A stretch of DNA of 64,000 nt from Flavobacteriales bacterium (GTDB taxonomy: Bacteria > Bacteroidota > Bacteroidia > NS11-12g > UBA955), in contig CANHRE010000002.1 of NCBI GenBank assembly GCA_947463095.1, positions 42,056-106,055 of the forward strand, read 5' to 3'. Positions 11,054-53,949 of the stretch are shown here, in pieces. A model generated the notes under the pieces. That model had not been told where the DNA came from, made no database searches, and worked only from the letters and a program-made list of their open reading frames with translations. The position numbers were made by a program, and so were the translations under genes. Within the stretch, counting starts at the first letter, position 1, and each line of letters opens with the position of its first letter.

Positions 11054-11152
11054 TAAATTATTTTTATATCTACCTTTTTTACGGTTTTTTATTGCTCTGT
11101 TTTGGGTAATCAGGTATATTTGGCGTTTGAACATTTGAAAAAACACAGACTC

Positions 11153-14100
11153 ATGAATAAACAACTACGCATCAAAACCACATGGTTACTGGCCTTGCTG
11201 CTCATGGCGGCATCAGGTCTGAGGGCTCAGGTGAATCTGGCGCTCACAGCCACGCCCAACCACTCAGGCGGAGGATTGAACTCCACCGGCTACGGTCCGT
11301 CTAATTACAATGACAAGGTCATCGCAGCCGGTGTATTTGGCTGGGTTGCGACTTCGGGTAATCCAAGCACCACCAGTTGGCATGAATATGCCTGGTCTTC
11401 GCCACAAACCATCCAGCGCATCAGAATTTACAACGATGCAACAACAACCAGAACCTTAACCGGCGGTACCGTGCAGGTTTGGAATGGTTCAGCATTTACC
11501 AACGTAACCACATTTTCTGTTGCCGCGCAGATGACTTTTGACATCACATTGCCCAGCCCTCAGACAACCACCATCATACGCATCACCAACCACGTAACCT
11601 CGGGTTCACAAACATCAAATCCCGCCATTAGGGAAATTGAAGTGTTCGGCCCAAACCGTACTTGGGATGCCGCCGTTACTGCCCTTTCCATGCCCGGCGT
11701 TTGCGGCGGTTCAAGGACCATCACAGCGACGGTAACTAACAGCGGACGTTCCGCATGGGACAGCGTTCGTGTAGGTTATACCGTGAATGGTGCTTTGCAG
11801 TCGAATACCTGGTTGAAGCAAAGAATTACAGCCGGTTCTTCGGCAAACGTGACGTTCACATACAACTTCACCACTTCCGGTAACTATACCATCAGGGCCT
11901 TTACCAGCCGTCCAAATAATATTACTGATTCAAGCGCTGCTAATGATACTTTATCTTTTGCTACTCGATTGTTTACACAGCCCTCGACAGCAAGAGTGAT
12001 TGATCAGGTTCAGTGCGGCTCTGGATTCCCGCTGCATAAAGCGGTCAAACAATCCGGACGAACAATCTGGTTTGACAAATACTACAACATCTTTACCATG
12101 GCTGCGGGTGATTCCGTTTATGGCAAAACTAAGTTGTTCCCGAATGGAACTTCACCCAGAACCTACACTTTTGATGCGATTACCTTGAACGGTATTTCGG
12201 ATACCTTCTCTACCAGTCTGTTAAACACTTGGTCATACACCGGCGGTACCAGTCCTCAGCAAAAGGGTTATTTCTTTGACCTGCGCACCAAAGCGGATAT
12301 GTTGTTTACCGGTTTTGATGCAGTAATTTCTGATGCAACGCAAGCTCAGTATCAGGTTGAAGTTTATTACAGAAATGGAACCTCATCCGGCAATTATGCT
12401 AATTCGTCTGGTTGGGTAAGCTGTGGAAAGACTTCAATTACCAATACGTTCAATGCATTTGGGTCTAAACAGCCTACTGTGCGGATTGACATTAATGACA
12501 TGTTTCTGCTCAGCGGTCAAACCTATGGCTTTTACATGGTTGTGCTGGACGCTGTTCAGTCACTGCGCACTCATTGCGAACAAACCACAATGACCACAGG
12601 AAATAATTATGTTGACCTTGTTCCTGGTGCCTTGTCGGCTGTGGGTTTGTTCTCTACTACATTCGCTACAGGTTTCCGCCCCGAGATTCGCTTGCATATC
12701 GAACCCGGTTGCGCATCTTCATCTGCCGCCACGCAGAAAATTACGGTGAATCCACGCCCAATCGGTGCGGAATCTGTGGCTTCAAAACCCTATAAATCCA
12801 CCCGAATTGGTACTTCCGGTTTCCGCGGAGCTCCTGATGTAGTGGCACACAAAGACACCATCTCCTTTGAGTTGACTCCTCCTACCGGCTACACCAATGC
12901 AGGTCATGGTACAACCTGGAGAATAACCAGTGTTACTGCGCGCACGAACAATGGATATACTGTTCCTGTCGCGAATTATACCACCGCCAACCCCGGTTCT
13001 ACAGCCAATGCCAAAATGTGGTTCCACCCCAGCAGCGGTATGGTAGATAGTCTAGTGAACGTGCGCATTACTTTCCAGGACCTTGGTCCTTATAATTGCG
13101 ACAGCACCGTTGAGCGCTGGATTCGTGTAGCGCCTCGTTCCAAGCCTAATTTCACCTTCACTTCACCCACCTGTGATGGTCAGGATGTAGCTTTTGAAAA
13201 CTTGTCTACCGTATCTTCAGGAGGCATGGATTTCAAATGGTACTTTGGCGATGGCGACAGCAGCGATGCTAAAAACCCGGTAAAACGCTTCAAAGGGTCT
13301 GGTACCTTTAAAGTACGTCTCGTCGTAACCACCATCCCATTCGGCTACGTAAACGATACGACCATCAATGTTGTGGTAACTGAAATTCCCAAGGTGAACT
13401 TCACCAAGAATAACTCTTGCGAAGGTTCAAACACTAATTTTAACAACACCACTACTTATGGTGGATCCGGCACTGTAACCTACAGTTGGGATTTTGGTGA
13501 CGGTAAAGGTAAGAGCATAGTGAAAAGTCCTTCCTACCGCTATACTACACCCGGTGGTTATCCTGTAACCCTTACCGCCACAGTGAATGGTTGTGCTGCC
13601 AGCATCACCAAAAACACCTACCTCTTCCACAGGCCTAAGTCTTCATTCGACCTGCCATCAGGTAAGAACTGTGCCCGTGAAGATGCGACTTTCACCAACA
13701 AATCAACCATTGGTGCCGGTAACGTAGGCAGCTTGTGGGATTTCGGTGATGGTGAATTGGGAACCGTTGTTAATCCATCACACAAGTATGCTACAGATGG
13801 CAGCTTCAGTGTGCGTTTGATTGCCATCAGTGAATTCGGCTGTTCGGATACCATGACCAAAACGCTGGTTATCAAAGAGAAGCCTAAAGCTGCATTTGTA
13901 AATGGCCAGGTTTGTCTGAACAAGCCTGTAAGCTTCAGCAACACTTCACAACATTCAAGCACATTGAACCCTCAGTACCTGTGGCGCTTCAGCGATGGTC
14001 AGACCAGCGCAACAAAAGATGCATCACGTACCTGGACCACACCCGGCCCCAGAAAGATCACCCTGATTCTGACTCCATTCAACAATTGTGTGGATAGTGT

Positions 14101-14875
14101 TAGTGCAACGGTTGAGCCCGGAATTCTGCCGAATGTAAACTTTACCATTGAGAACAATTGTTCAGGTAAAGAAATCAATATTGCCAACTTGTCTGATGCA
14201 CCTCAGGGTGAAATCAGGTACGCATGGGATTTCGGGAATGGTAATATTTCTACCGAACGCGTTCCTAAGCCAGTGTATAATATTGCCACATCACGCACCT
14301 TCAACGTAACTCTGAAAGCTCAGGTGCTCGGTGGATGTCTGGATTCTCTGGTGAAAACTGTAACCATTTTCGAATTGCCTAAGTGTGATTTCACCATTAC
14401 CGATATCTACAAGAACGGTAATCGTGCATTCAGCTTCACCCCAGGTGTAACCAACTACAGCTACTACCGTTGGACTTTCGGTGATGGTGGCAACAGCAAC
14501 TTGCCTGCTTCTGAATATCAGTACACTTACGACGGTCCCTTCACCGTAACCCTTACCGCCAGAAACTCAGCCGGCTGCGAGTGCCAGTCTACACGCATCC
14601 TGAATGTATTGAATCTGGGTGTTGATGATGTTGCTGCCGCAGGAATTCGCGTGTATCCGAACCCTGCCAGCGGTATGCTGAATATCGATCTTCCAGTGAC
14701 CGGTTCCAAGATGAGCGTGAGCCTGCTGGATGCAACCGGACGTTTGGTAATGGCCGATCAACTGTATGCAGCCCAGAACAAACTTCATGTAGACAAATTG
14801 CCTGCAGGTTTGTATCAGGTGATTGTAACAGTTGACGGTGCATCAACCACTACCCGCGTAGTGGTAGGTCGCTGA
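11153..14875 (+). CDS. secreted multi-PKD-domain protein with N-terminal discoidin-like domain and T9SS type-A C-terminal domain
   Basis: Signal peptide MNKQLRIKTTWLLALLLMAASGLRAQ. At least five WDFGDG / W[YT]FGDG PKD signatures. The C-terminal ~75 aa (VYPNPASGMLNIDL...GLYQVIVTVDG...) matches the Por secretion tail. The ORF track start at 11102 is probably too far upstream. Confidence 0.8.
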   Translation: MNKQLRIKTTWLLALLLMAASGLRAQVNLALTATPNHSGGGLNSTGYGPSNYNDKVIAAGVFGWVATSGNPSTTSWHEYAWSSPQTIQRIRIYNDATTTRTLTGGTVQVWNGSAFTNVTTFSVAAQMTFDITLPSPQTTTIIRITNHVTSGSQTSNPAIREIEVFGPNRTWDAAVTALSMPGVCGGSRTITATVTNSGRSAWDSVRVGYTVNGALQSNTWLKQRITAGSSANVTFTYNFTTSGNYTIRAFTSRPNNITDSSAANDTLSFATRLFTQPSTARVIDQVQCGSGFPLHKAVKQSGRTIWFDKYYNIFTMAAGDSVYGKTKLFPNGTSPRTYTFDAITLNGISDTFSTSLLNTWSYTGGTSPQQKGYFFDLRTKADMLFTGFDAVISDATQAQYQVEVYYRNGTSSGNYANSSGWVSCGKTSITNTFNAFGSKQPTVRIDINDMFLLSGQTYGFYMVVLDAVQSLRTHCEQTTMTTGNNYVDLVPGALSAVGLFSTTFATGFRPEIRLHIEPGCASSSAATQKITVNPRPIGAESVASKPYKSTRIGTSGFRGAPDVVAHKDTISFELTPPTGYTNAGHGTTWRITSVTARTNNGYTVPVANYTTANPGSTANAKMWFHPSSGMVDSLVNVRITFQDLGPYNCDSTVERWIRVAPRSKPNFTFTSPTCDGQDVAFENLSTVSSGGMDFKWYFGDGDSSDAKNPVKRFKGSGTFKVRLVVTTIPFGYVNDTTINVVVTEIPKVNFTKNNSCEGSNTNFNNTTTYGGSGTVTYSWDFGDGKGKSIVKSPSYRYTTPGGYPVTLTATVNGCAASITKNTYLFHRPKSSFDLPSGKNCAREDATFTNKSTIGAGNVGSLWDFGDGELGTVVNPSHKYATDGSFSVRLIAISEFGCSDTMTKTLVIKEKPKAAFVNGQVCLNKPVSFSNTSQHSSTLNPQYLWRFSDGQTSATKDASRTWTTPGPRKITLILTPFNNCVDSVSATVEPGILPNVNFTIENNCSGKEINIANLSDAPQGEIRYAWDFGNGNISTERVPKPVYNIATSRTFNVTLKAQVLGGCLDSLVKTVTIFELPKCDFTITDIYKNGNRAFSFTPGVTNYSYYRWTFGDGGNSNLPASEYQYTYDGPFTVTLTARNSAGCECQSTRILNVLNLGVDDVAAAGIRVYPNPASGMLNIDLPVTGSKMSVSLLDATGRLVMADQLYAAQNKLHVDKLPAGLYQVIVTVDGASTTTRVVVGR

Positions 14876-15633: not shown

Positions 15634-15700
15634 TGTTTCTGCAGCTGAACTTAGTTTCTGTTTTTAATCAAAGGTTGTACGTTTGTACCCGTAAAGCATT

Positions 15701-16519
15701 ATGAGCAATCAAATCTTAAAAGGAAAAAAAGGAATTATTTTCGGCGCACTTGACGAAAAATCTATTGCCTGGAAAACTGCATTGGCCTGTCATGCAGAAG
15801 GTGCTGTATTTACATTAACCAATGCACCTATTGCCCTGCGCATGGGTGCTATCAATGAATTGTCGGCAGTTTGCAACAATGCAAAGGTTATTCCCGCTGA
15901 CGTTACCAGTGAAGAAGATCTGAATAACCTCATCCAGGAAAGCATGAACGTGCTGGGTGGTAAAATCGATTTTGTACTCCACAGTGTGGGTATGAGCCTT
16001 AATGTGCGAAAGAAGAATCCTTACACCGACCTGAACTATGATTTCATGCATAAAAGCTTTGACATCAGCGCTATTTCTTTTCATCGCCTGATGCAATTGC
16101 TCATGAAACATGATGCCATGAATGAATGGGGCAGTATAGTGGGTCTTAGTTATATCGCTGCACAGCGCGTGTTTCCTGATTACAACGAAATGGCAGAAGC
16201 TAAATCGCTCCTTGAGTCATTTGCAAGAAGCTTCGGCTATCACTTTGGCAAGGCCAAAAAAGTCAGGGTGAATACCATTTCACAATCACCAACCAAAACA
16301 ACGGCCGGCAGCGGTGTTGGTGGCTTTGATGCGTTTTACAATTACGCGGATAAAATGAGCCCATTAGGCAATGCCTCTTCAGAAGCCTGCGCCGAGTATT
16401 GTGTGTCCTTGTTCAGCGATTATACCAGAATGGTTACCATGCAGAACCTCTTCCACGACGGAGGATTCTCCTTTACCGGAATTTCCTCAGATGCCATGGA
16501 GCTTTTTGAGAAGGGGTGA
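15701..16519 (+). CDS. fabI: enoyl-[acyl-carrier-protein] reductase FabI (SDR family)
   Basis: N-terminal LKGKKGIIFG...SIAW Rossmann motif, the FabI-type Y-x6-K (YNEMAEAK) and C-terminal FHDGG-like motif. ~270 aa. Confidence 0.8.
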   Translation: MSNQILKGKKGIIFGALDEKSIAWKTALACHAEGAVFTLTNAPIALRMGAINELSAVCNNAKVIPADVTSEEDLNNLIQESMNVLGGKIDFVLHSVGMSLNVRKKNPYTDLNYDFMHKSFDISAISFHRLMQLLMKHDAMNEWGSIVGLSYIAAQRVFPDYNEMAEAKSLLESFARSFGYHFGKAKKVRVNTISQSPTKTTAGSGVGGFDAFYNYADKMSPLGNASSEACAEYCVSLFSDYTRMVTMQNLFHDGGFSFTGISSDAMELFEKG

Positions 16520-44241: not shown

Positions 44242-45012
44242 ATGAAAGTACTGAGCTACAACGTGAATGGGATTCGTTCCGCACTGAGCAAAGGTCTGGT
44301 TGATTATCTGGCATTTGCCGATGCAGATGTGGTTTGTTTACAGGAAACCAAGGCTGAATCGGCGCAGGTTGATTTGAGCAGCATTGAAGCACTTGGCTAT
44401 AAAAGCTACTGGTTCAGTGCTGCCAAAAAAGGCTACAGCGGTGTAGCCATTCTTTCTCGACTGGAACCGCAATTTGTAGATTATGGCTGTGGTGACCCTG
44501 AATGGGATCGTGAAGGACGCGTTATCCGTGCCGATTTTCCGCAGTTTAGTGTGATGAGTGTTTATTTTCCAAGCGGTTCTTCAGGCGACCACAGGCAGGA
44601 AGCCAAATTCCGCTTTCTGGATTTTTTCCATCCCTATGTGCAGCAAATTCGCCAACAGTACCCCCATTTGCTGGTTTGCGGCGATTACAACATTTGTCAC
44701 AAACCCATTGACATCCATGATCCCAAAAGCAATAAAGACAGCAGCGGCTTCCTTCCGGAAGAGCGCGCCTGGATGGATCAGTTTTTCCAGGATGGATTTA
44801 CTGATACCTACCGCCATTTCTACCCGGAAACGGCTCATCAGTATTCCTGGTGGAGCTTTCGCGCCAATGCCCGCAACAACAACAAGGGGTGGCGTATTGA
44901 CTACATCGCTGCTTCCAAGGCATTGGTTGCGCACCTGAAGGAAGCGGGCATCACCCAGGAAGCCAGACACTCGGACCATTGCCCGGTGTGGGTGGAACTA
45001 AGCCGATCCTGA
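44242..45012 (+). CDS. xth: exodeoxyribonuclease III
   Basis: MKVLSYNVNGIR...VVCLQETK N-terminus and C-terminal SDHCPV motif. Confidence 0.9.
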   Translation: MKVLSYNVNGIRSALSKGLVDYLAFADADVVCLQETKAESAQVDLSSIEALGYKSYWFSAAKKGYSGVAILSRLEPQFVDYGCGDPEWDREGRVIRADFPQFSVMSVYFPSGSSGDHRQEAKFRFLDFFHPYVQQIRQQYPHLLVCGDYNICHKPIDIHDPKSNKDSSGFLPEERAWMDQFFQDGFTDTYRHFYPETAHQYSWWSFRANARNNNKGWRIDYIAASKALVAHLKEAGITQEARHSDHCPVWVELSRS

Positions 45013-45019
45013 CAGCGGT

Positions 45020-47818
45020 TTACTGTTCAGGGAACTTTACGCCCAAGGCCTGCAGAATTTGGAAGCGGGCGCCATTATCTGACATCGCCTGCTGATATAG
45101 TTGGGCCTGTTCTTTTTCTCCGCGCGCCTGGTAAAGCTGCGCACCAAGTCCGTAAAACTCGGGTGCCATCTGGTTCTGAACTATGCCCTTGTTCAATTTT
45201 TCGATGGACATATCCAGCAGGTTCTTCCGCGCCAGAATCAAGGCCTGGTAATAATAGGCAACACCATCTTTCGGCCTGATTTGCTCATAGGTGTTGAAGT
45301 ACTGCAATGCTTCGTCCAGCTTGTTCATTTGCAACTGAATTAACCCGGCAATATTCAATGCAGGTGTGTAATCAGGTGTGATGACAATGGATCTTGTGGC
45401 ATAACGTGTTGCGGAATCCATCATTGCCTGGTTCAAGGCCGTATCCGATTGACCCATCTGGAAATAGCTGTCGGCAATGGCAGTAAGCACTTCGCAGCTG
45501 TTGGGATCTGTTTTTAACGAAGTTTTCAGTTGTTCCAGCGCGACAGGGTAGCTGCGCACTTTGTAGGCCTTCATGCCTTCCAGGTCGGCTTTCCCAAGGC
45601 GCTGTATCACAATCCCCATCGGTTTGCCGTCCACCTCAGGCGAATAAACAGTTCCGGCAGGAGGATAGAAGCCATTCAACAAACGCTCTTTGTCCATGTG
45701 CGCATTGTAAAAGATGGAATAATCCCAGTCCACCTTGCTGCGGTCATCATAGCGGGTATAGCCTACGTGCACATTGGGGTAGTTGCGGAAATAATAACGC
45801 ACATGATCCATTCCATAGGTGAGGATGGTATATTTCTTCTCTGGATTTTTGCTGATTACCTCTTTGATGAGCCATTCGCTGGAAGGCTTCAGGCTGGCCA
45901 GGTAATAATCCATCTCGTATTTACCATAGGCACCCTTTACACCGCCGCTCAATTCGTTGAAATAGATGTATTCCAGGGGGTGATTTCTTGCCACAAAAGA
46001 AGCAGGCAGCAGCAGGAGCAAGCCGGCTGTGGCAGGCACTGCCGTTCCGGCAAATCGGAACGATTTTATGCGCTGTTCCAGGAGGTAGAAACCGTAAACA
46101 CCCAGCACCACCAGAGGTGGGATGGTGAAGAGGATCTGACGCAGTCCGCCGTAAACATTTGATTTCTGGATGTAGATATATAGAATGGGGAAAACGGCGG
46201 CGAAAAGCACAAGGAACACATCAGTGCTGAATTTTTTGGACTGCATCAGCTGCAGCACAAAAAACAGCAACAGGCCAAAAAGGGTAAACAGCGGGGTGGT
46301 GATGAACAGGTATCGGGCAAGGTAGGCAGATGGCAGGAGGTCGCTGTCGTATAATTTTCCTTCATACAACTGGCGAAGGCTGGTGGAATAGTTGCTGAAC
46401 TCGCTCAAAACCTTGAATGGATGCTCCAGCGGACTTTCCAGGGCATAAGGCCACGGCAGTACACCGGCGGCATAACCAAGCACAAGCACCGCCAGAACGG
46501 GCTTTACATGTGCCCACAAGTTGGTCCAGCGAAATTTCAGGAAGTTGTTCAGCCCGATGAGGTTGATGTACTGCAAGCCTGCATACATAACCGTGATGGG
46601 CAGCAGCAAAAGACCGCCAACGCGCACGCTGATGGCAAGTCCGATACCAAGCACCAGGCCAATGGCGTGGCTGATGCGCATCTTCTTATCGCTGAAACAG
46701 CGCATCATGTAATACATAGCCATGATGTAGCCTGCGGCGAAGGGAATGTCCTTAGGATTGTTCAATGATTCGCCCAGCAACCTGGGGGTAAAGAACAGGG
46801 CCAGCATTCCGATGAAGCCATATTTCCAACTGCCGGTAAGCCTCCTGATTATCAATGCGGCAAACAATACAGCCAGAAAACCGAACAAGCTGTTGAAGAA
46901 ATGTCGGGTTTCAAAGATCTGATCTGTACCCAGCCAGCGGATGATCATGGTGGTGAAGGTGTCGAAACTCGACCCGTACAGGTGCATGAATTTATCTTCA
47001 TCTACCAGGGTTGCAAGGCGTTCCGGGGCTTCAGTAGCGGCAGCTCTTGCCAGTCCGATCATTTTTTGTCCCTTGAGGGCATTGGTATCTACATCGATGC
47101 TTCCTCCCAACATATGTTGGTAGTAGTTGGCCGTAAGCTTGGAGTATTCATATTGGGTGAATTCATCACCGGAGATCGCTGCATTGCGGCTCAGCATCGG
47201 CATCAATACCAGCAGGAGCAGAGCAACCGCGGCAAAGGCCAACTGCCATACCGAACCCTCGCGAAGCATCCGAGCGGGACTGTACCACCACAGAGCCGTG
47301 CCCAACTTTGCCTTCAACGATTGGAGCATAGGTGTGCGCAGGGCTGCGGCACCTTCAACGGGTTTGTTTTCGGTGGACAATCCTGCCTTTTCAAGCGCAT
47401 ATAACAGCCGGTACTGGTGTGCTATTTGGGAAATGGCAGCGTCCTTCCACGAGGTTCCACGGAGCAGGAGCCATGGTGTATTCCATTCGGCATCGGAAAA
47501 GCCTGACAACCATTCTGTCGTGGAAAATCGTTCGTTCTCACCACCGCTGATGATGTCGGCATCAAGGGAGCCTGTTGTTTGCAGCCAGGTGTTCAGCTTG
47601 CCGGTTTCCAATTGGTTCACCAGCAGATATTGGTCGGCCTCTGCAGCCTGTAAAGCCATTAAGGCATCCTGAAAGGAACCTCCGCCCCAGTAAACCACTT
47701 CACAGTTTTTTAGGTTTGACGCCACATGTTGTTGCTTGTCGGATGGAACCTGAATGGTAAAGGCAATGGCCGTTTTACGAACCTTAGAAGCAGTGGACAG
47801 AGGTGTTTTCTGTTTCAT
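45020..47818 (-). CDS. GT-C-fold membrane glycosyltransferase (PMT/ArnT/TMTC-like) with N-terminal soluble domain and C-terminal TPR repeats
   Basis: 932 aa. About 190 aa are soluble, then ~11 predicted TM helices. A D-E(F) motif (ISGDEFTQYEY) sits in the first extracytoplasmic loop, as in PMT/ArnT enzymes. The C-terminal ~280 aa hold TPR-like repeats. Confidence 0.6.
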   Translation of the reverse strand: MKQKTPLSTASKVRKTAIAFTIQVPSDKQQHVASNLKNCEVVYWGGGSFQDALMALQAAEADQYLLVNQLETGKLNTWLQTTGSLDADIISGGENERFSTTEWLSGFSDAEWNTPWLLLRGTSWKDAAISQIAHQYRLLYALEKAGLSTENKPVEGAAALRTPMLQSLKAKLGTALWWYSPARMLREGSVWQLAFAAVALLLLVLMPMLSRNAAISGDEFTQYEYSKLTANYYQHMLGGSIDVDTNALKGQKMIGLARAAATEAPERLATLVDEDKFMHLYGSSFDTFTTMIIRWLGTDQIFETRHFFNSLFGFLAVLFAALIIRRLTGSWKYGFIGMLALFFTPRLLGESLNNPKDIPFAAGYIMAMYYMMRCFSDKKMRISHAIGLVLGIGLAISVRVGGLLLLPITVMYAGLQYINLIGLNNFLKFRWTNLWAHVKPVLAVLVLGYAAGVLPWPYALESPLEHPFKVLSEFSNYSTSLRQLYEGKLYDSDLLPSAYLARYLFITTPLFTLFGLLLFFVLQLMQSKKFSTDVFLVLFAAVFPILYIYIQKSNVYGGLRQILFTIPPLVVLGVYGFYLLEQRIKSFRFAGTAVPATAGLLLLLPASFVARNHPLEYIYFNELSGGVKGAYGKYEMDYYLASLKPSSEWLIKEVISKNPEKKYTILTYGMDHVRYYFRNYPNVHVGYTRYDDRSKVDWDYSIFYNAHMDKERLLNGFYPPAGTVYSPEVDGKPMGIVIQRLGKADLEGMKAYKVRSYPVALEQLKTSLKTDPNSCEVLTAIADSYFQMGQSDTALNQAMMDSATRYATRSIVITPDYTPALNIAGLIQLQMNKLDEALQYFNTYEQIRPKDGVAYYYQALILARKNLLDMSIEKLNKGIVQNQMAPEFYGLGAQLYQARGEKEQAQLYQQAMSDNGARFQILQALGVKFPEQ

Positions 47819-47916
47819 ACGCGCCTACAATTATAAAGGTTCGGCTTTAAGCAAGCATTGCTTGGCTAAACTTCCACACACGTTTTCTGTCTCCGCGGTG
47901 TTTATTTGCAAGTACA

Positions 47917-48933
47917 ATGACGGTAAGGCTTGGAATCATCGGGCTGGGTTACTGGGGGCCAAACCTGGTACGGAATTTTGCTCAGGCGGGCGGCGGAAGC
48001 CTTGTGGCTGTTGCTGATCTTGACGAAGGGCGAAGAAACAGGATTGCGGCTCAGTATCCTGCGCTGCAGTGCTATGCTGATGCCGGAGCAGTTATTGATC
48101 ATCCGGAGTTAGATGCCGTTGTGATTGCCACACCCATACACACGCATTACGATTTGGCAAAACGCGCCTTGCTTTCAGGTAAACATGTTTTGGTTGAAAA
48201 ACCTCTGGCTACCTCAGCCTCAGAAGTGCGGGAGCTGATGGATCTGGCCAAAGCCAAAGGCTTGTTGCTCATGGTAGACCACACGTTCCTTTATACAGGT
48301 GCGGTTCAGAAAATCAGGGAGCTGGTGGAACTCGGGGAATTAGGTACACTGAATTATTTCGACAGCACCCGCATCAACCTGGGGTTGTTCAATCCCAACT
48401 GGAGTGTTATCTGGGATCTGGCCGTGCATGACCTCAGCATCTTCTTCTATATCACAGGCGGTAAGAAGCCGAAATCAGTATCAGCGGTAGGCCAGAGCCA
48501 TACGGCTATGGGTATTGAAGACCTGGCATACACAACCCTGTTTTTTGAGGACGGCATGATGGCCCACATTGCTTCCTCCTGGATATCCCCAGTGAAGATA
48601 AGGAAAACGCTGATTGGCGGCACCAGGAAAATGGTGATTTATGATGATGTAGAGCCCACCGAGAAAATTAAGATTTACGACAGCGGCTTTACGGTACGCA
48701 GCCCGGAAGAGATGCACCGCTGGCTTGTAGACTATCGCTTTGGTGATATTTTCATCCCAAAGCTGGAACAAAAAGAAGCGCTGAGCGGCGTTGCGCACGA
48801 TTTCATCCAATGCATCCAAACGGGTGGAACACCACTTTCCAATGCCCATTTGGGTCTTCAGGTGGTTTCTGTGCTTGAAGCTGCCCAGGAAAGCATCAGG
48901 CAAAAAGGAGCTCCGGTAGCCCTTCAGTTTTAA
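47917..48933 (+). CDS. Gfo/Idh/MocA-family NAD-dependent sugar-nucleotide oxidoreductase (WbpB/GnnA-like)
   Basis: RLGIIGLGYWGPNLVRNF Rossmann N-terminus and EKPLA motif. 338 aa. Confidence 0.85.
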   Translation: MTVRLGIIGLGYWGPNLVRNFAQAGGGSLVAVADLDEGRRNRIAAQYPALQCYADAGAVIDHPELDAVVIATPIHTHYDLAKRALLSGKHVLVEKPLATSASEVRELMDLAKAKGLLLMVDHTFLYTGAVQKIRELVELGELGTLNYFDSTRINLGLFNPNWSVIWDLAVHDLSIFFYITGGKKPKSVSAVGQSHTAMGIEDLAYTTLFFEDGMMAHIASSWISPVKIRKTLIGGTRKMVIYDDVEPTEKIKIYDSGFTVRSPEEMHRWLVDYRFGDIFIPKLEQKEALSGVAHDFIQCIQTGGTPLSNAHLGLQVVSVLEAAQESIRQKGAPVALQF

Positions 48934-48980
48934 AAAGGTTCCCTCTTTTTTAAGCGCTTTTTCGGACAATTTGCTTTTTT

Positions 48981-49502
48981 TTGTTGCATAGCATCACCAT
49001 GCCTGAATTAATCAACGTTGATACCCCAACGCAAAAAATCGTGAACGTGGAAGTCGGAGAAGGTGTCCGTATTTTCCACTTTGTAAACCTTTACGGCTGT
49101 AAGTTGGGCGATGGCACCAAGATTGGGCCCTTTACCGAAATTCAGAAAGGGGTGAATATTGGGAAAAACTGCAAAATTTCCAGCCATTCTTTCATATGCG
49201 ATGGGGTAACCATTGAGGATGAAGTGTTCATCGGTCATGGAGTGATGTTTATCAACGATATGTTCCCGCGCAGCACCAACGAAGACGGGAGCGTTAAGTC
49301 GGAGGCAGACTGGAAGCTGGAAACCACTCATATTGAAAAAAGAGCCGCTATTGGTACCAATGCCACCATCCTTGCCGGCGTGCGCATTGGAGCGGGTGCT
49401 CTGGTGGGTGCCGGCAGTGTGGTTACCAAGGACGTAGCACCAATGACGAAAGTGGCGGGTAACCCGGCGCGGGTGATTGGGAAAGTTGGTCCCGATGAGT
49501 AA
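48981..49502 (+). CDS. hexapeptide-repeat (left-handed beta-helix) N-acetyltransferase (WbpD-like)
   Basis: Hexapeptide repeats ([LIV]G..x[LIV]) and C-terminal AGNPARVIG. 173 aa. Confidence 0.8.
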   Translation: MLHSITMPELINVDTPTQKIVNVEVGEGVRIFHFVNLYGCKLGDGTKIGPFTEIQKGVNIGKNCKISSHSFICDGVTIEDEVFIGHGVMFINDMFPRSTNEDGSVKSEADWKLETTHIEKRAAIGTNATILAGVRIGAGALVGAGSVVTKDVAPMTKVAGNPARVIGKVGPDE

Positions 49503-50226
49503 CAAGCCCCGCCAAAGCTGGACTTTGGGCATCATGTGCTACAATGAGTCCGGTAATATTGAACAGGTTGTGCGACATACCTGCAGTACGGCTGCCCTGT
49601 TGGCCGATGATTGGGAGGTCATTGTGGTTGATGATGGCAGCGCAGACGATTCTGTTCCCATCCTGAAGCGCCTGAAAGCACAAGAATTTCCCGATTTACG
49701 CATTGTTGAGCATGGCATAAATCGTGGCATTGGTGCAGCCTTGCGATCTATCTATTTCAATGCCGCCAAAGATGTGGTTGTTGCCCTTCCCGGAGATGGG
49801 CAGTTCGATGCCAATGAACTGCTGGCATATCCCTATGTGGCCATACGCACGGTAATCAGTTATTACCGAGTGGAAAATACTTCCTACAGCGTTTTCAGGA
49901 ATGGCCTGAGCTGGGTGAACAAAACGCTGAACCGCGTATTGCTGGGCATGGAGTTGAGGGATGTGAACTGGATTTTAGTGTTCCGTGCGGCAGACCTGTG
50001 CGACCTGGACCTGCGCATGCAAAGCAGTATTGTAACCAGTGAAATATGCAGCAAACTCAGGTACAAGGGTTGGCGATTCCTGGAAGTTCAGTCGCGTTAC
50101 CTTCCCAGAACGGCAGGTAAAAGCAGGGGCGCTTCACTGCGCACTATTTACCGTGCCGCGAGCGAATTGATCAGGTTGATTGCCGTTTACAGGCTGTTTC
50201 GTCGCCGTATACGCAGCACCAATTGA
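49495..50226 (+). CDS. family 2 glycosyltransferase, Dpm1/ArnC-like polyprenyl-phosphate sugar synthase candidate
   Basis: GIMCYNESGNIEQVV...VIVVDDGSADDS...RGIGAALRS are GT2-A motifs of DPM1/ArnC-type enzymes. ATGAGTAA start/stop overlap with the acetyltransferase. ~243 aa without C-terminal TM helices. Confidence 0.8.
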   Translation: MSNKPRQSWTLGIMCYNESGNIEQVVRHTCSTAALLADDWEVIVVDDGSADDSVPILKRLKAQEFPDLRIVEHGINRGIGAALRSIYFNAAKDVVVALPGDGQFDANELLAYPYVAIRTVISYYRVENTSYSVFRNGLSWVNKTLNRVLLGMELRDVNWILVFRAADLCDLDLRMQSSIVTSEICSKLRYKGWRFLEVQSRYLPRTAGKSRGASLRTIYRAASELIRLIAVYRLFRRRIRSTN

Positions 50227-50282
50227 TACTTCAAAGTGAACGGGCACAGTAGCCCAAAAAATGTTCCGATATTTGTCGCCAG

Positions 50283-51377
50283 ATGAACGTGCCATTTTTT
50301 GACCTTTCGCGTCAATACCAGATGCTCAAGCCTGAAATTCAGGATGCTTTGCAGCGGGTTATGGATCAAACGGCTTTTTCCGGTGGTCCTTTTGTAGATC
50401 GTTTTGAAGAAGAACTGGCCGCCTATACCGGTGTAAATTATGCCGTTGGGCTGAACAGCGGTACATCTGCGCTGCATCTGGCCATGTTGGTCCACGGAAT
50501 TGGACCCGGTGACGAAGTTATCGTTCCTGCCAATACTTTTATTGCCACTGCCTGGGGACCTAGTTACGCCGGGGCAACACCGGTGTTTTGCGACATTGAT
50601 CCATTAACCTGGAATATTGACCCCGAATCGGTGCGCAGTAAAATCAGCAGCCGCACCAAAGCCATTATTGGGGTACACCTCTATGGACAGCCCTGCAATC
50701 TGGACGCATTGCGCAGTATTGCGGATGAGCATGGGCTTGTGCTCATGGAAGATGGAGCTCAAAGCATTGGGGCTACCTATCGAGGACAGAAGACCATGGC
50801 CATCGGCGATATCGCAGCCACCAGCTTCTATCCAGGAAAGAATCTGGGTGCCTATGGAGAAGGTGGAGCCTTGTTTACCAACGACCAGACCGTTGCCGAG
50901 CATGCTAAATCTTTGCGCAGCCACGGATCCAAGCAGCGCTATTTCCACGATGAAATAGGATATAACTACCGCATGGAAGGATTTCAGGCGGCCGTGTTGA
51001 GCGTGAAATTACGCTACATTGATCGCTGGAATGCGCGCCGTCGCGAAGTGGCCGCACTGTATCTTGAGGATGTGAAAAATCCGAAAATCACCTTTCAGTC
51101 CCGCGAGCCAGAATCCACCGGTGTATTTCACCTAATGGTTCTAACCACTGAAAATAGGGAACACCTGCGCGATTATCTGGCAGAACAGGGGATAGGAACG
51201 GCTTTTCATTATCCCCATCCGTGTCACCTGCAGAAAGCATATGCAGACCTGGGATATAAACCGGGCAGCATTCCCAATGCCGAAGCCCAGGCCGCACACT
51301 GTCTGTCCCTGCCCATGTTTCCGGAAATAACCGATGAAGAAGCCATGGCTGTAGTGCATGCCCTGAACGCCTATTAA
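50283..51377 (+). CDS. DegT/DnrJ/EryC1/StrS-family PLP-dependent sugar aminotransferase
   Basis: 364 aa with family-typical layout (GDEVIVPANTFIATA, lysine-containing segment, C-terminal HALNAY). Confidence 0.9.
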   Translation: MNVPFFDLSRQYQMLKPEIQDALQRVMDQTAFSGGPFVDRFEEELAAYTGVNYAVGLNSGTSALHLAMLVHGIGPGDEVIVPANTFIATAWGPSYAGATPVFCDIDPLTWNIDPESVRSKISSRTKAIIGVHLYGQPCNLDALRSIADEHGLVLMEDGAQSIGATYRGQKTMAIGDIAATSFYPGKNLGAYGEGGALFTNDQTVAEHAKSLRSHGSKQRYFHDEIGYNYRMEGFQAAVLSVKLRYIDRWNARRREVAALYLEDVKNPKITFQSREPESTGVFHLMVLTTENREHLRDYLAEQGIGTAFHYPHPCHLQKAYADLGYKPGSIPNAEAQAAHCLSLPMFPEITDEEAMAVVHALNAY

Positions 51378-51480: not shown

Positions 51481-53949
51481 ATGAAGCTGATCAGGCTGTT
51501 TTTCTATTTGTTCATACTGGCCTTGCCTGGCACTGTTTCAGCATCGCATGTTGTTGGTGGTGAAATTACCTACAAGCATTTGGGTAATTATAATTACGAA
51601 GTAAAGCTTTACCTGTTCATTGACTGTTTAAACGGGCAGCCGGGCGCAATTGCTGATGATGCCACAGCGCGGATTGCCGCTTTTGACGGGTCCTCAGGTG
51701 CATTGATCAGTTCTCTTTCTAGGGAAATCAACAGAACCGGACCTACCCGGGTTCAGAAGTTAAATTATAAATGTGTGCGCAATACGCCCAATCAATGTGT
51801 GGATATGTATGTGTACACCTACAACATTAATCTTCCCCAGAGAACTGGCGGCTATTTTCTGTCGTTCCAGCGTTGTTGCAGAAACCAGATTATTTCTAAC
51901 ATTTATGATCCGGGTTTCACCGGAGCAAACTATTGGACAAAAATACCGCAGGTTACAGGCGGAGTTGGTTTCAACAGCAGCCCGGTGTTTAAAGAATTGC
52001 CCCCAAACTATTTGTGTACCAATGCCTGGTTAAATTTTGACCACAGCGCTACTGATCCGGATGGTGATTCTCTGGTTTATGAATTTTTTACGCCCTATGT
52101 GGCGGCCGACCGCAATGATCCAAGGCCATCCTTCGGCAACTACGCCCGCCCGCCTTTTGACACCTTGCGCTGGATAGGTGTTTACAATTACAATTATCCC
52201 CTTGACGGCAGTCCTGCATTGAAAATAGACCGCGAAACGGGAAGGCTTACCGGCATTCCTACCCGGGAAGGACAGTTTGTAATTGGAATTAAGGTGAAGG
52301 AATACCGCAAAGGTGTATTGATCGGTGAAACCAAGCGCGATTATCAATTCTACGTGTACCGCTGCATTGTGGATGTGGTTTCAGCATTCTATGCGCCAAA
52401 CTACCAGTGTGGCTATGGGGTGCAGTTCAGCAACCAAAGTCAAGGTGGGACCAGATTCCATTGGGATTTTGGTGTTAAGGGAACCAACAGTGACACGTCG
52501 AACCTGATCAACCCCAATTTTACTTTTCCCGCTGCCGGAGTGTATCAGATTAAACTGCTTGCCTACCGAGCCAACTGTGTGGACAGCAATATGTCCACCA
52601 TCACTATTTACGAGCCCAGGAAGCCCTTCATAGGGAACGATACCCTGATATGCGGGAAATTTAGCTTCACTCTTGCCGCCAAGGAAACCTCCTTTAGCTA
52701 CCAATGGAATACCGGTCAAACCACCAGAAGCATCACCATCAGCAAGGGCGGTGTTTATTGGGTTGATAAAATTGACGGAAAGTGTCGTTGGCGCGACAGC
52801 ATCAACATCACCAACGATGTGAGCAGGGTTCGCATCAGCGGCGATACGACTATTTGTTCGGAGAAGCCCTTTACCGCGATGCTGGATGCTGGCGCCGGCT
52901 ATGTGAAATATACCTGGAACCTAGGAGCTAATACCCAAACCTACACGGCAACTAAAACCGGCATATTCTGGGTGGAAACGGTGAACAAGAATGGCTGTAT
53001 TACACGCGATTCTGCCTTTATTGACCAATACCCGGAATTGAAGCTGAACCTAACAGATACGCTCCTTTGCCCGGGAACAATGGCTATGCGTGATGCGGGA
53101 AACCCGGGAAGTTCCTATGCCTGGTCTGATGGCCAGAGTGGTCAGCAGGCGTTCTTCAGGCAGCCCGGGGCTTATGGGGTTCTGGTGCGCAAGGGTAAAT
53201 GCTCCAACTTCGCATCCTTTAACCTGAACGTGTATCCCGCCGAGCTGGACCTTGGTCCGGATACGGCATTTTGCGGACAGGTGAATAAACTGCTGAAACC
53301 CTTGGGAGGAAGGCAATTTCCATCTTACACCTGGAATGAGGCTGTCAGCAGTCCGACCTATCTGGCCGCTCTGCCTGGACTTTACCTTTTAAAGGTAATC
53401 ACCGCCAATGGATGCATAGAAGAGGATTCTATCAGGCTGGTGCTGAACCCTTTGCCTGTGGTGAATCTTCCGCCCGATACTACCGTTTGCCTTAGTACAG
53501 TGTTAATATTGGACCCCGGTTCATATGTTTCGTACCTATGGAATAATGGCAGCAGAGAAAGAATCCAACGCACTTATGTGAACGGACTGTACAGTGTTCA
53601 GGTTGCCGATATGAATGGGTGCAAGAATTCAGCGGCTACTACGGTAACAAAAAACCCTCAAAAATGGCCATCCGAGTTGTTTGTACCCAATGCCTTTACT
53701 CCTAATGGAGATGGCCTGAACGATGTATTTCCGGCTCACCGGTATCAATCAGAAGGCGGTTTTTATGATTTCAAGGTATTCAACCGCTGGGGAGAAAAGA
53801 TATGGGAAAGCAAAAATCCTTCTGAGAACTGGGATGCCACCATCAAGGGACGCATGGTGCCCGAAGGTGTTTATGTTTACCTTGTGAATTGGGTTGGCTG
53901 CGACAACCAAAGGCGCAGTGCTTCAGGCAATATCAGCGTAATGCGCTGA
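51481..53949 (+). CDS. secreted multi-beta-sandwich repeat protein with T9SS type-B C-terminal domain
   Basis: Signal peptide MKLIRLFFYLFILALPGTVSA. At least five ~85-aa repeats with Y.WN.G..T...G.Y.V.V.D.NGC. C-terminal FVPNAFTPNGDGLNDVF...GVYVYLVNW type-B sorting domain. Confidence 0.8.
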   Translation: MKLIRLFFYLFILALPGTVSASHVVGGEITYKHLGNYNYEVKLYLFIDCLNGQPGAIADDATARIAAFDGSSGALISSLSREINRTGPTRVQKLNYKCVRNTPNQCVDMYVYTYNINLPQRTGGYFLSFQRCCRNQIISNIYDPGFTGANYWTKIPQVTGGVGFNSSPVFKELPPNYLCTNAWLNFDHSATDPDGDSLVYEFFTPYVAADRNDPRPSFGNYARPPFDTLRWIGVYNYNYPLDGSPALKIDRETGRLTGIPTREGQFVIGIKVKEYRKGVLIGETKRDYQFYVYRCIVDVVSAFYAPNYQCGYGVQFSNQSQGGTRFHWDFGVKGTNSDTSNLINPNFTFPAAGVYQIKLLAYRANCVDSNMSTITIYEPRKPFIGNDTLICGKFSFTLAAKETSFSYQWNTGQTTRSITISKGGVYWVDKIDGKCRWRDSINITNDVSRVRISGDTTICSEKPFTAMLDAGAGYVKYTWNLGANTQTYTATKTGIFWVETVNKNGCITRDSAFIDQYPELKLNLTDTLLCPGTMAMRDAGNPGSSYAWSDGQSGQQAFFRQPGAYGVLVRKGKCSNFASFNLNVYPAELDLGPDTAFCGQVNKLLKPLGGRQFPSYTWNEAVSSPTYLAALPGLYLLKVITANGCIEEDSIRLVLNPLPVVNLPPDTTVCLSTVLILDPGSYVSYLWNNGSRERIQRTYVNGLYSVQVADMNGCKNSAATTVTKNPQKWPSELFVPNAFTPNGDGLNDVFPAHRYQSEGGFYDFKVFNRWGEKIWESKNPSENWDATIKGRMVPEGVYVYLVNWVGCDNQRRSASGNISVMR

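Follow-up and report, generated by a model that had tools for sequence, protein, structure and literature searches.

A widespread, uncharacterised membrane glycosyltransferase family that probably serves an amino-sugar glycosylation module

The window analysed here is a 64,000-nucleotide stretch of DNA from an uncultured Flavobacteriales bacterium (GCA_947463095.1, contig CANHRE010000002.1), in which the gene for a 932-residue GT-C/TPR protein lies divergently from four sugar genes, followed by a gene for a type IX secretion system (T9SS) cargo protein. The features, in window positions, are:

45020..47818, minus strand: GT-C/TPR membrane protein, 932 aa, with four domains (predicted dead GT2 relic, 11-TM core, periplasmic alpha/beta domain, TPR)
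47360..47779, minus strand: residues 14-153, cytoplasmic alpha/beta domain, a degenerate GT2 (GT-A) relic, predicted to be catalytically dead
45983..47251, minus strand: residues 190-612, membrane core of about 11 helices, N-in, C-out
47162..47173, minus strand: acidic motif S216-G217-D218-E219 in the first extracytoplasmic loop
45599..45970, minus strand: residues 617-740, conserved periplasmic alpha/beta domain (YxYFNE..GG..GAYGxYEMDYY, DWDY)
45047..45589, minus strand: residues 744-924, C-terminal TPR solenoid, predicted periplasmic
47819..47916, no strand: divergent intergenic region of 98 bp that separates the GT-C gene from the sugar operon
47846-47870: imperfect inverted repeat within this intergenic region
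47917..48933, plus strand: Gfo/Idh/MocA oxidoreductase (OX), probable nucleotide-sugar 3-dehydrogenase, GnnA-like (Pfam GFO_IDH_MocA, 1.3e-26)
48981/48999-49502, plus strand: hexapeptide acetyltransferase (ACT), left-handed beta-helix, 3-amino-sugar type (Pfam Hexapep, 4.3e-26)
49477/49495-50226, plus strand: monotopic GT2 of 243 aa, probable polyprenyl-phosphate sugar synthase (Pfam Glycos_transf_2, 1.2e-15)
49789..49809, plus strand: P99-G-D101-G-Q103-F-D105 in the GT2, a variant of the DxDxQ metal-binding motif
50283..51377, plus strand: DegT-family PLP aminotransferase (AT), sugar C-3 type (Pfam DegT_DnrJ_EryC1, 2.6e-122)
51481..53949, plus strand: T9SS type-B-CTD surface protein, 822 aa, an associated gene and candidate acceptor

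The coordinates and divergent arrangement of the five open reading frames agree with an earlier, sequence-only reading of this DNA, and the overlap ATGAGTAA that it described between the ACT and GT2 genes is genuine. This overlap is 8 nt long, with the GT2 ATG at 49495-49497 and the ACT TAA at 49500-49502 in the context ...GATGAGTAA.... A sigma-70 scan of the 98-bp intergenic region gave nothing above chance, as expected for Bacteroidota. The prospect that the sugar genes are part of a larger O-antigen locus was not borne out, as the module is flanked by housekeeping genes (LepA, BrkB, thioesterase, DUF349, EEP, NUDIX, PDDEXK, TsaD and TamB), and no other glycosyltransferase, Wzx, Wzy or LPS genes were found in the flanks. 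Within the module, there is no initiating phosphoglycosyltransferase, Wzx, further glycosyltransferase or flippase candidate.

In silico, the modelled 932-residue protein has the fold, motif and topology of a GT-C enzyme, and its structural neighbours include ArnT, together with Pmt4 and Pmt2, which match as well as ArnT, and likewise STT3, AglB and PglB. The Asp-Glu motif that had been proposed for its first loop was recovered directly after the first TM helix (residues 190-210), but the first 190 or so residues form a cytoplasmic alpha/beta domain rather than membrane, and the first loop therefore begins at about residue 211. S216, G217, D218 and E219 do not vary across 30 homologues with identities as low as 30%, and the same holds for R305/H306, N353, N354, K356, D357 and P359 (NNPKDIPF), and R399. 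In the periplasmic domain, for which the AF2 model has strands and helices at residues 643-739, the invariant residues are Y617, N621, G625, E635, D637, Y638, Y639, W698, D699 and Y700, and Pfam TPR matches bear out the repeats reported at the C-terminus. The similarity to PMT and PMT_2 that was sought by HMM search of 45020-47818 is present but below threshold (21.0 bits against a cut-off of 22.7 and 22.0 against 26.1, respectively, both over residues 304-423), and the DUF2723, DUF1736 and ArnT models gave no match. In action this GT-C would resemble the enzymes of these families, but it lies outside their membership.

Alignment of the N-terminal domain shows the GT2 motifs DDGS and DAD replaced by GGG and NQL. 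Profile comparison by hhalign connects the N-domains of the window clade to those of distant homologues (80.6%, E 1.3e-5), and these in turn to bona fide fused GT2 domains (97.8%, E 1e-12), pointing to a catalytically dead GT2 relic at the N-terminus. Some relatives carry a live GT2 fused at the N-terminus (at least six Saprospiraceae loci, with Pfam GT2 above cut-off in five of eight long GT-C representatives), while others have a separate GT2 gene nearby, of about 242 aa and at most 6 kb from the GT-C gene in 25 of 83 loci. The dead domain is probably a remnant of an ancestral GT2-GT-C fusion and, speculatively, could hold the GT2, which has no TM segment, against the membrane. Both the fusion and a stand-alone cassette (L087) are present in Saprospiraceae, which means that the GT2 of the cassette need not always feed a GT-C of the window type. 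The GT-C family, to which databases give no other name than "TPR protein", runs to about 960 representatives (50% identity) and no fewer than 572 species hits; no Bacteroides, Porphyromonas or Prevotella is named among the matches listed. In five loci of the family, genes for a UbiA-like protein and a methyltransferase lie upstream.

The separate GT2, read as soluble from its sequence, has no TM segment; the model has just one long amphipathic helix at the C-terminus (residues 215-242). Its motif is GDGQ instead of DxDxQ, and 21 family members show no variation at D101, G102, Q103 and F104, nor at N17, E18, D47, S49, D51, N76/G78/G80, D156/N158/W159 and S182/E183. The enzyme falls far under every NCBIfam equivalog cut-off. 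Its nearest neighbours are DPMS and ArnC by fold and ArnC and PpgS by sequence, and the top two by fold, both polyprenyl-phosphate synthases, align over 223-226 of 243 residues. This GT2 is probably a polyprenyl-phosphate sugar synthase.

The nearest relatives of OX are UDP-GlcNAc 3-dehydrogenases; its best NCBIfam match is the archaeal enzyme (1e-43, full length, 150 bits against a cut-off of 450), and it matches GnnA (PDB 7bvj) at 1.3e-19. As WbpB/WlbA is absent from the best 60 of 66 matches at E <= 1e-8, the UDP-GlcNAc (GnnA/archaeal) branch fits OX better than the uronic-acid branch. The nearest relatives of ACT are 3-N-acetyltransferases (WlbB, QdtC, FdtD), with 7s3u, FdtD-like 4mzu, WlbB 3mqg and QdtC 3fs8 as its best PDB matches, and it matches the NeuD/PglB/VioB family at 5.9e-23. 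The AT matches QdtB (8.2e-99), DesV (2.6e-96) and WbpE (5.5e-79), all of which are C-3 aminotransferases. That the proposed diacetamido sugar bears an acetamido group at C-2 would follow solely from the weak similarity of OX to UDP-GlcNAc 3-dehydrogenases; OX could alternatively act on UDP-Glc, leading to Glc3NAc, or on the lipid-linked sugar.

Synteny in related genomes upheld the association, as these gene families accompany a GT-C of the window family in three gene orders: GT-C divergent from OX-ACT-GT2-AT in the window, GT2-OX-ACT-AT-GT-C with all five genes in L092, and OX-AT-GT2-MTase-GT-C, lacking the acetyltransferase, in L086. OX adjoins the GT-C gene in 13 loci (67-88% identity), and GT2+OX pairs are also present in the unrelated clusters L090 and L091. 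In GCA_044224315.1, the set is divided into OX+GT-C and ACT/GT2-AT-cargo.

The 822-aa cargo protein consists of an N-domain of no known type, PKD, Ig-like repeats and CHU_C (3.4e-18; TIGR04131 47 bits, cut-off 35), and contains ten D[ST][AILVMT] sites, where shuffled sequences have 2.0 +/- 1.3. Its orthologues adjoin the cassette in L007, L088, L089 and L093, and in L081 one lies directly after a distant GT-C. Because downstream synteny is common to the window, L007, L088, L089 and L093, these adjacencies are not independent, and only that in L081 clearly is. In Cytophaga hutchinsonii, T9SS cargo is glycosylated in the periplasm by a transferase yet to be named (PMC11611037).

Taken together, and with a probability of roughly 0.6, we read the locus as a self-contained module for extracytoplasmic glycosylation via a lipid-linked monosaccharide, in support of the sequence-only interpretation, which withstood each of the refutation tests named with it; a search of the available literature found no paper on such a system in Bacteroidota. 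Together, the five genes probably serve to synthesise a rare 3-acetamido sugar, transfer it to a lipid carrier in the membrane and join it to an extracytoplasmic target. By family similarity, OX would oxidise a UDP-hexose (most likely UDP-GlcNAc) at C-3, the DegT enzyme would transaminate this position and the hexapeptide enzyme would N-acetylate the new amine, giving a UDP-3-acetamido-3-deoxy sugar, most likely UDP-GlcNAc3NAc. The DPMS/ArnC-like GT2, judged by fold and sequence, would then transfer the sugar to polyprenyl phosphate at the inner membrane face. After flipping, a step matched to no module gene, the PMT/ArnT-like GT-C would transfer the sugar in the periplasm via its loop-1 Asp-Glu, with its periplasmic alpha/beta and TPR domains choosing the acceptor. 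This acceptor would most likely be a protein, since the characterised TPR-bearing GT-C enzymes considered (TMTC, TMEM260, TfpW) all modify proteins, and the T9SS type-B cargo protein, given its recurrent linkage, is the first candidate. Counted against this explanation were the lack of a flippase candidate, GDGQ in the GT2, the cut-off shortfall, the alternative OX substrates, the GT2+OX pairs in unrelated clusters, the missing acetyltransferase in L086, the shared synteny behind most cargo adjacencies, the presence of a cargo orthologue near only two of 83 GT-C-centred loci, and the occurrence of both fusion and cassette in Saprospiraceae.

It is possible, though unlikely, that the mechanism holds with a different acceptor, namely lipid A, LPS core or another glycan (ArnT-, Gtr- or GT136-like), and that the TPRs make protein-protein contacts instead of selecting a protein substrate. 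Characterised bacterial GT2+GT-C pairs mostly decorate glycolipids or polysaccharides (PMC11127046), and a cargo orthologue lies near only two of 83 GT-C-centred loci (L007 and L081). However, ArnT, Gtr and GT136 lack TPR domains (GT136 has a CBM instead), whereas TMTC, TMEM260 and TfpW, the TPR-bearing GT-C enzymes considered, act on proteins; the matches to Pmt4 and Pmt2 are no worse than that to ArnT, and the flanks are devoid of LPS genes.

Somewhat less probable is that OX and AT are housekeeping GnnA/GnnB making UDP-GlcNAc3N for GlcN3N lipid A, with GT-C proximity reflecting lineage synteny and no functional tie. In its favour, Capnocytophaga canimorsus, also of the Flavobacteriales, has gnnA/gnnB and GlcN3N-GlcN lipid A (PMC3342949), OX matches GnnA, OX and AT show higher identity (64-68%) than GT2 and GT-C (46-47%) in GCA_044224315.1, and in 11 loci of one clade OX alone lies next to the GT-C gene. 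Against this, a 3-N-acetyltransferase-type enzyme and a GT2 with translationally coupled overlap stand between OX and AT, N-3 acetylation would block LpxA acylation, and in both L092 and L086 a single strand carries OX, AT, GT2 and GT-C, separated by short gaps. The two readings are also compatible, as UDP-GlcNAc3N could be a shared branch point. Least probable is that the GT2 is an ordinary Leloir transferase adding the amino sugar to an Und-PP-linked O-glycan or O-antigen unit and the GT-C uses another donor or is an oligosaccharyltransferase or polymerase: GDGQ, the STT3, AglB and PglB neighbours and the still-to-be-identified OTase of Bacteroidota general O-glycosylation (PMC12871550) would fit, but the synthase-like GT2 neighbours, the module's lack of an initiating phosphoglycosyltransferase, Wzx or further glycosyltransferase, the repeated fusion or adjacency of the GT-C family to Dpm1-like GT2s, and the absence from the matches listed of Bacteroides, Porphyromonas and Prevotella, where general O-glycosylation occurs, speak against it.

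Among known systems, WbpB/WbpE/WbpD (WlbA/C/B), GnnA/GnnB and the archaeal route share the proposed chemistry of dehydrogenase, C-3 aminotransferase and 3-N-acetyltransferase, except that GnnA/GnnB lacks the last step. The PDB matches of the window enzymes include WbpE, WlbB and GnnA, and none of the equivalog cut-offs is attained; the products of the known systems enter Und-PP-linked O-units or lipid A rather than a polyprenyl-P monosaccharide. In the Arn pathway, ArnC is the Und-P-L-Ara4FN synthase and ArnT a GT-C of GT83. The amine of ArnA/B/C/T is at C-4 and formylated, whereas that of the window would be at C-3, made via a Gfo/Idh/MocA 3-dehydrogenase and N-acetylated; ArnC has two TM helices and the window GT2 none; the window GT-C has a dead GT2 domain and TPRs and no ArnT HMM match; and there are no ArnD or ArnE/F equivalents. 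Lipid A, the acceptor of ArnT, is an unlikely acceptor here. Dpm1/PMT, TMTC1-4 and TMEM260 carry out eukaryotic protein O-mannosylation. Their donor sugar is mannose, while an acetamido sugar is predicted for the bacterial, periplasmic window system, whose GT-C has no MIR domain, matches neither DUF1736 nor DUF2723 and remains below the PMT and PMT_2 cut-offs. In GtrA/GtrB/GtrX, GacI/GacL, CsbB/YfhO, PpgS/Rv3779, FlmF2/FlmK and LgmA/B/C, a GtrB-type GT2 supplies GlcNAc, GalNAc or Glc as a polyprenyl-P-monosaccharide to a GT-C acting outside the cytoplasm, and all decorate glycolipids or polysaccharides. PpgS, which is likewise not known to have TM helices, aligns with the window GT2 at full length, but the window has no GtrA-like flippase gene, its sugar would first be tailored by three dedicated enzymes and its GT-C architecture differs. 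The polyprenyl-phosphoribose synthase, MATE and GT136 systems share the concept of a lipid-linked monosaccharide donor and a GT-C with a C-terminal acceptor-binding domain, using a UbiA-type synthase and a CBM where the window has a GT2 and TPRs (Kelly et al., 2024; PMC11127046). TfpW, the Pseudomonas aeruginosa pilin D-Araf glycosyltransferase, uses decaprenyl-P-arabinofuranose from a UbiA-type route and has neither a GT2 partner nor a dead GT2 domain. In architecture, it is like the window GT-C in combining a cytoplasmic N-terminus and 11 predicted TM helices with an acidic loop motif and, on the periplasmic side, a C-terminal TPR domain, and tfpW adjoins the gene of its own protein substrate.

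In the window, the GT-C/TPR protein and its neighbours are arranged as follows.

45020-47818, minus strand: GT-C/TPR protein of 932 aa (open reading frame)
47917-48933, plus strand: Gfo/Idh/MocA oxidoreductase, OX (Pfam)
48999 (ATG) to 49502, plus strand: hexapeptide acetyltransferase, ACT (Pfam)
49495-50226, plus strand: GT2 of 243 aa, here the cassette GT2 (Pfam)
50283-51377, plus strand: DegT aminotransferase, AT (Pfam)
51481-53949, plus strand: cargo, a surface protein of 822 aa with PKD and T9SS type-B C-terminal domains (Pfam, NCBIfam)

The four co-oriented sugar genes and the divergent 932-aa reading frame described in the sequence-only reading are all present, separated by 98 bp, and the four families were confirmed by Pfam. 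The overlap claimed there between the ACT and GT2 genes is also real and consists of ATGAGTAA, with the GT2 ATG at 49495 and the ACT TAA at 49500-49502. The flanking genes encode LepA, BrkB, a thioesterase, a methyltransferase, DUF349 and EEP on one side, and NUDIX, PDDEXK_3, TsaD and TamB on the other. As all of these are housekeeping genes, the module is not part of a larger O-antigen locus, a possibility that the earlier reading had raised against itself. The 98-bp divergent intergenic region contains an imperfect inverted repeat (47846-47870, TTTAAGCAAGCA / TGCTTGGCTAAA, 83% complementary), which could be an operator. A scan for sigma-70 promoters and terminators gave no excess over shuffled sequences. 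A gene of the endonuclease/exonuclease/phosphatase family (44242-45012) is convergent with the GT-C gene, whose stop codon lies 7 bp away, and keeps this place in the related locus L007 (77% identity).

In the 932-aa protein, Pfam sequence models detected TPRs and sub-threshold PMT and PMT_2 matches, and nothing else. A confident AlphaFold2 model built from 30 homologues (pLDDT 88.2, pTM 0.86) shows a multi-span membrane module with the GT-C fold, organized as follows.

Residues 14-153: N-terminal alpha/beta domain (AlphaFold2 model)
Residues 190-612: about 11 TM helices (AlphaFold2 model)
Residues about 617-740: second alpha/beta domain (AlphaFold2 model)
Residues 744-924: TPR solenoid (Pfam and AlphaFold2 model)

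The C-terminal TPR repeats and the acidic D-E motif of the first extracytoplasmic loop, both predicted from sequence, are thus in place: D218 and E219, within SGDE and directly after TM1 (residues 190-210), are invariant in the 30 homologues. Judging from the helix count (11), the positive charges in alternate short loops and GT-C homology, the N-terminal domain would be cytoplasmic, and the second alpha/beta and TPR domains periplasmic. The large periplasmic loop comprises only about 56 residues (454-509, AlphaFold2). The window protein falls below the Pfam cut-offs for PMT (PF02366, 21.0 vs 22.7) and PMT_2 (PF13231, 22.0 vs 26.1) and has no Pfam match to a MIR (beta-trefoil) domain, ruling out membership in PMT/GT39. 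Neither DUF1736 nor DUF2723 was matched in Pfam at E <= 0.01, ruling out TMTC and TMEM260, respectively. The NCBIfam matches are TPR models only, with no ArnT family among them, ruling out ArnT/GT83, which the protein resembles at fold level only. Some relatives do pass Pfam thresholds (PMT 28.8 in P0460; PMT_2 31.5 in P0471 and 29.8 in P0399), and public sources name about 300 homologues "tetratricopeptide repeat protein" or "hypothetical".

The TPR-bearing GT-C enzymes TMTC and TMEM260 are established to modify proteins (PMC10214176), and TfpW, also considered here, is likewise a characterized TPR-bearing GT-C acting on protein. A candidate protein acceptor lies next to the sugar genes. The C-terminal domain of the cargo scores above the cut-offs of both TIGR04131 (47.1 vs 35 bits) and CHU_C (66 vs 27 bits), while its N-terminal approximately 300 residues matched no family in Pfam, NCBIfam or PDB. 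Full-length cargo orthologues with 38-70% identity adjoin the cassette in L007, L088, L089 and L093; these four loci have downstream genes in common with the window, thus they are not independent observations of the link. An independent case of GT-C/cargo adjacency is found in L081, a distant Flavobacteriales MAG with other flanks, where 76 bp separate the gene of a 737-aa GT-C (32% identity) from the cargo orthologue that follows it. The cargo also carries ten D[ST][AILVMT] sites, where 2.0 +/- 1.3 would be expected, and is likely to be a periplasmic glycoprotein; since this is the sequon of the general Bacteroidota O-glycosylation system, the site count bears on that point only. The ten sites are regular in the repeats, with GxDTxxC opening a repeat and NGCxxxDS closing it. 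An acceptor that is instead a glycolipid or glycan appears unlikely.

Two tandem cargo paralogues in L089 have only the N-terminal approximately 410 residues and the CTD in common. In the window itself, further very large reading frames resembling the cargo lie at 4826-9709 and 11102-14875; the end of a 1627-aa frame (9371-9706) matches the type-B CTD, and PKD-like segments occur at 7079-7306 and 14183-14485, so that several T9SS surface proteins are encoded there.

The sugar-tailoring enzymes point to the C-3 position. AT is nearest to the C-3 aminotransferases QdtB (8e-99), DesV (3e-96) and WbpE (6e-79), and ACT to 3-N-acetyltransferases of nucleotide-linked 3-amino sugars (7s3u, FdtD-like 4mzu, WlbB 3mqg and QdtC), both assignments being family-level similarity only. 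Among named families, OX matches archaeal UDP-GlcNAc 3-dehydrogenase best (150 bits, cut-off 450; NCBIfam); GnnA (7bvj) matches at 1.3e-19, and WbpB/WlbA is absent among the 60 best of its 66 matches. Together, these family matches give good support to a 3-acetamido-3-deoxy sugar as the predicted product. Of the UDP-2,3-diacetamido route proposed earlier, the C-3 aminotransferase and 3-N-acetyltransferase families stand; the 2-acetamido group would come from UDP-GlcNAc, the more likely starting substrate. Capnocytophaga has GlcN3N lipid A (PMC3342949) of the kind that would result if OX and AT simply were, or doubled as, GnnA and GnnB; this is a rather improbable account of the two enzymes, and one that would be compatible with the 3-acetamido route through a shared branch point.

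The cassette GT2 has a GT-A catalytic domain nearest to polyprenyl-phosphate glycosyltransferases of the DPMS/GtrB/ArnC type. In PDB, its sequence matches three ArnC entries best (residues 10-216), and PpgS aligns with it over the full length. The earlier Dpm1/ArnC-like assignment is supported for the catalytic domain but not for equivalog identity, as all NCBIfam scores are far under the equivalog cut-offs (ArnC, 41 vs 529 bits; PpgS, 33 vs 370 bits). The family keeps YNE, VDDGS and NxGIG, and an invariant P-G-D101-G-Q103-F-D stands where DxDxQ is expected, the first Asp being replaced by Gly and the second Asp and Gln retained. No TM helix was found in the enzyme, only a long C-terminal amphipathic helix.

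Further evidence on the donor comes from the GT-C family at large. In six Saprospiraceae loci, the GT-C homologue (1009-1052 aa) opens with a complete Dpm1-like GT2 domain carrying YNE, VDDGS, LDADM and DTQCGF, and Pfam GT2 is above cut-off in five of eight long family representatives. In 25 of 83 loci, the GT-C gene has a separate Dpm1-like GT2 gene (product of about 242 aa) no more than 6 kb away. In profile-profile comparisons, the fused domains align with the N-domains of distant unfused homologues (97.8%, E 1e-12, 233 columns), and these in turn with the N-domain of the window clade (80.6%, E 1.3e-5). In the window protein, GGG replaces DDGS and NQL replaces DAD in the alignment, by which its N-terminal domain is a dead GT2 with the scaffold kept and the catalytic residues lost. 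Live fusion, gene split and dead relic make the GT2-GT-C pair a clear Rosetta-stone link between the synthase of the donor and the transferase, and are strong evidence that the family partners a polyprenyl-phosphate sugar synthase. The "L004-type" Dpm1-like GT2 that accompanies most family members was sought and is absent from the window; the cassette GT2 belongs to another GT2 subfamily, sharing 29% identity with the fused domain (E 1e-12). We infer from the Dpm1-like GT2s, whether fused or adjacent, and from the cassette GT2 that GT-C takes a polyprenyl-phosphate-linked sugar donor. It is very unlikely that the cassette GT2 is a conventional Leloir enzyme beside a GT-C using some other donor.

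The GT-C family occurs in at least 572 species-level genomes, labelled Bacteroidota save for a few MAGs (e.g., "uncultured Rhizobium sp."), and a phmmer search with the GT-C core returned 960 representatives (50% identity) at E <= 1e-30. Hosts include Flavobacteriales, Saprospiraceae, Chitinophagales, Cytophagales, Odoribacteraceae and Marinilabiliales. The full window arrangement is limited to the close relatives L006 and L007. Elsewhere, the module families recur with GT-C in other orders: GT2-OX-ACT-AT-GT-C on one strand in L092, where GT-C has 749 aa (30% identity to the window protein, hhalign probability 100%), and OX-AT-GT2-methyltransferase-GT-C in L086, where GT-C has 702 aa and no N-domain. 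In GCA_044224315.1, the set is split: one contig carries OX and GT-C, a second one ACT/GT2-AT-cargo. The occurrence of the set in three gene orders and one split form favors a functional unit over adjacency that was simply inherited.

A Prevotellaceae MAG (L063, 636-8309) has at least two tandem GT-C/TPR paralogues, the second with 25% identity to the window protein across 674 aa. In L048 (8014-9925) and four other loci (clusters c22 and c23), a UbiA-type prenyltransferase-like membrane protein and a SAM methyltransferase precede the GT-C homologue, which suggests that some members may use a polyprenyl-phosphoribose-type donor, by analogy with GT136 three-component systems. Distant cassette-GT2 homologues (38-47% identity) are paired with a Gfo/Idh/MocA oxidoreductase in L090 (7382-14688) and L091 (5627-13390); these clusters are of quite another make-up and encode a carbamoyltransferase, CN-hydrolase, UbiA, methyltransferase, radical-SAM/SPASM and large unannotated membrane proteins, and the 723-, 605- and 661-aa proteins beside the pairs were rejected as GT-C relatives (hhalign probability <1%). 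A small RDD-family membrane protein is encoded between OX and GT-C in L001 (7271-7852), and in L094 a gene of the RDD family (15652-16098) is located some 6 kb away from the GT2/ACT pair. A role as flippase is conceivable for this protein, which the window module lacks.

The best-supported reading of the module as a whole, with a probability of about 0.6, has four steps. OX, AT and ACT would make a UDP-3-acetamido sugar, which the cassette GT2 would transfer to polyprenyl phosphate; the lipid-linked sugar would then be flipped across the membrane, and GT-C would transfer the sugar in the periplasm, probably onto protein. A more specific version is tentative and, taken jointly, doubtful: GT-C/TPR may be a bacterial counterpart of TMTC/TMEM260, a domain-specific protein O-glycosyltransferase whose targets would be T9SS type-B surface adhesins. 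While still in the periplasm and not yet exported, these would receive one unusual 3-acetamido sugar, supplied by a polyprenyl-phosphate donor. The TM-less GT2 synthase would dock on the dead GT2 domain at the N-terminus, so that it and the transferase form one donor-channelling complex.

Protein-glycosylation transferases of Bacteroidota are still unidentified (PMC12871550; PMC11611037), both those that glycosylate T9SS cargo in the periplasm (PMC11611037) and the OTase of the general O-glycosylation system (PMC12871550). If true, the more specific version would identify a transferase for the periplasmic T9SS-cargo glycosylation that is so far unexplained. The taxonomic spread of the GT-C family does not support a role as the O-oligosaccharyltransferase still missing for the general system. 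Among Bacteroidales, only Odoribacteraceae, Butyricimonas, Marinifilaceae and Paludibacteraceae are named as members, and no Bacteroides, Porphyromonas, Prevotella or Tannerella isolates were among the matches of a motif-based scan with sparse naming, which could miss distant homologues.

The four-step model gives a concrete, testable function to a large family labelled only "tetratricopeptide repeat protein" in databases, predicts a lipid-linked donor undescribed so far (polyprenyl-P-GlcNAc3NAc or a close analogue), and puts forward an enzyme and a substrate as candidates in periplasmic T9SS cargo glycosylation. In agreement with the sequence-only reading, the literature searched gave no description of a GT2 + GT-C/TPR + 3-acetamido-sugar system in Bacteroidota. 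The logic is the same as in the ArnC/ArnT, Dpm1/PMT and Gtr-type three-component systems, thus the kind of system is not itself new. What is new in comparison is the predicted donor sugar, a GT-C subfamily with a dead or live GT2 N-domain and a TPR tail, the breadth of this subfamily in Bacteroidota, where it is wholly unannotated, and the link of the module to a T9SS surface protein.
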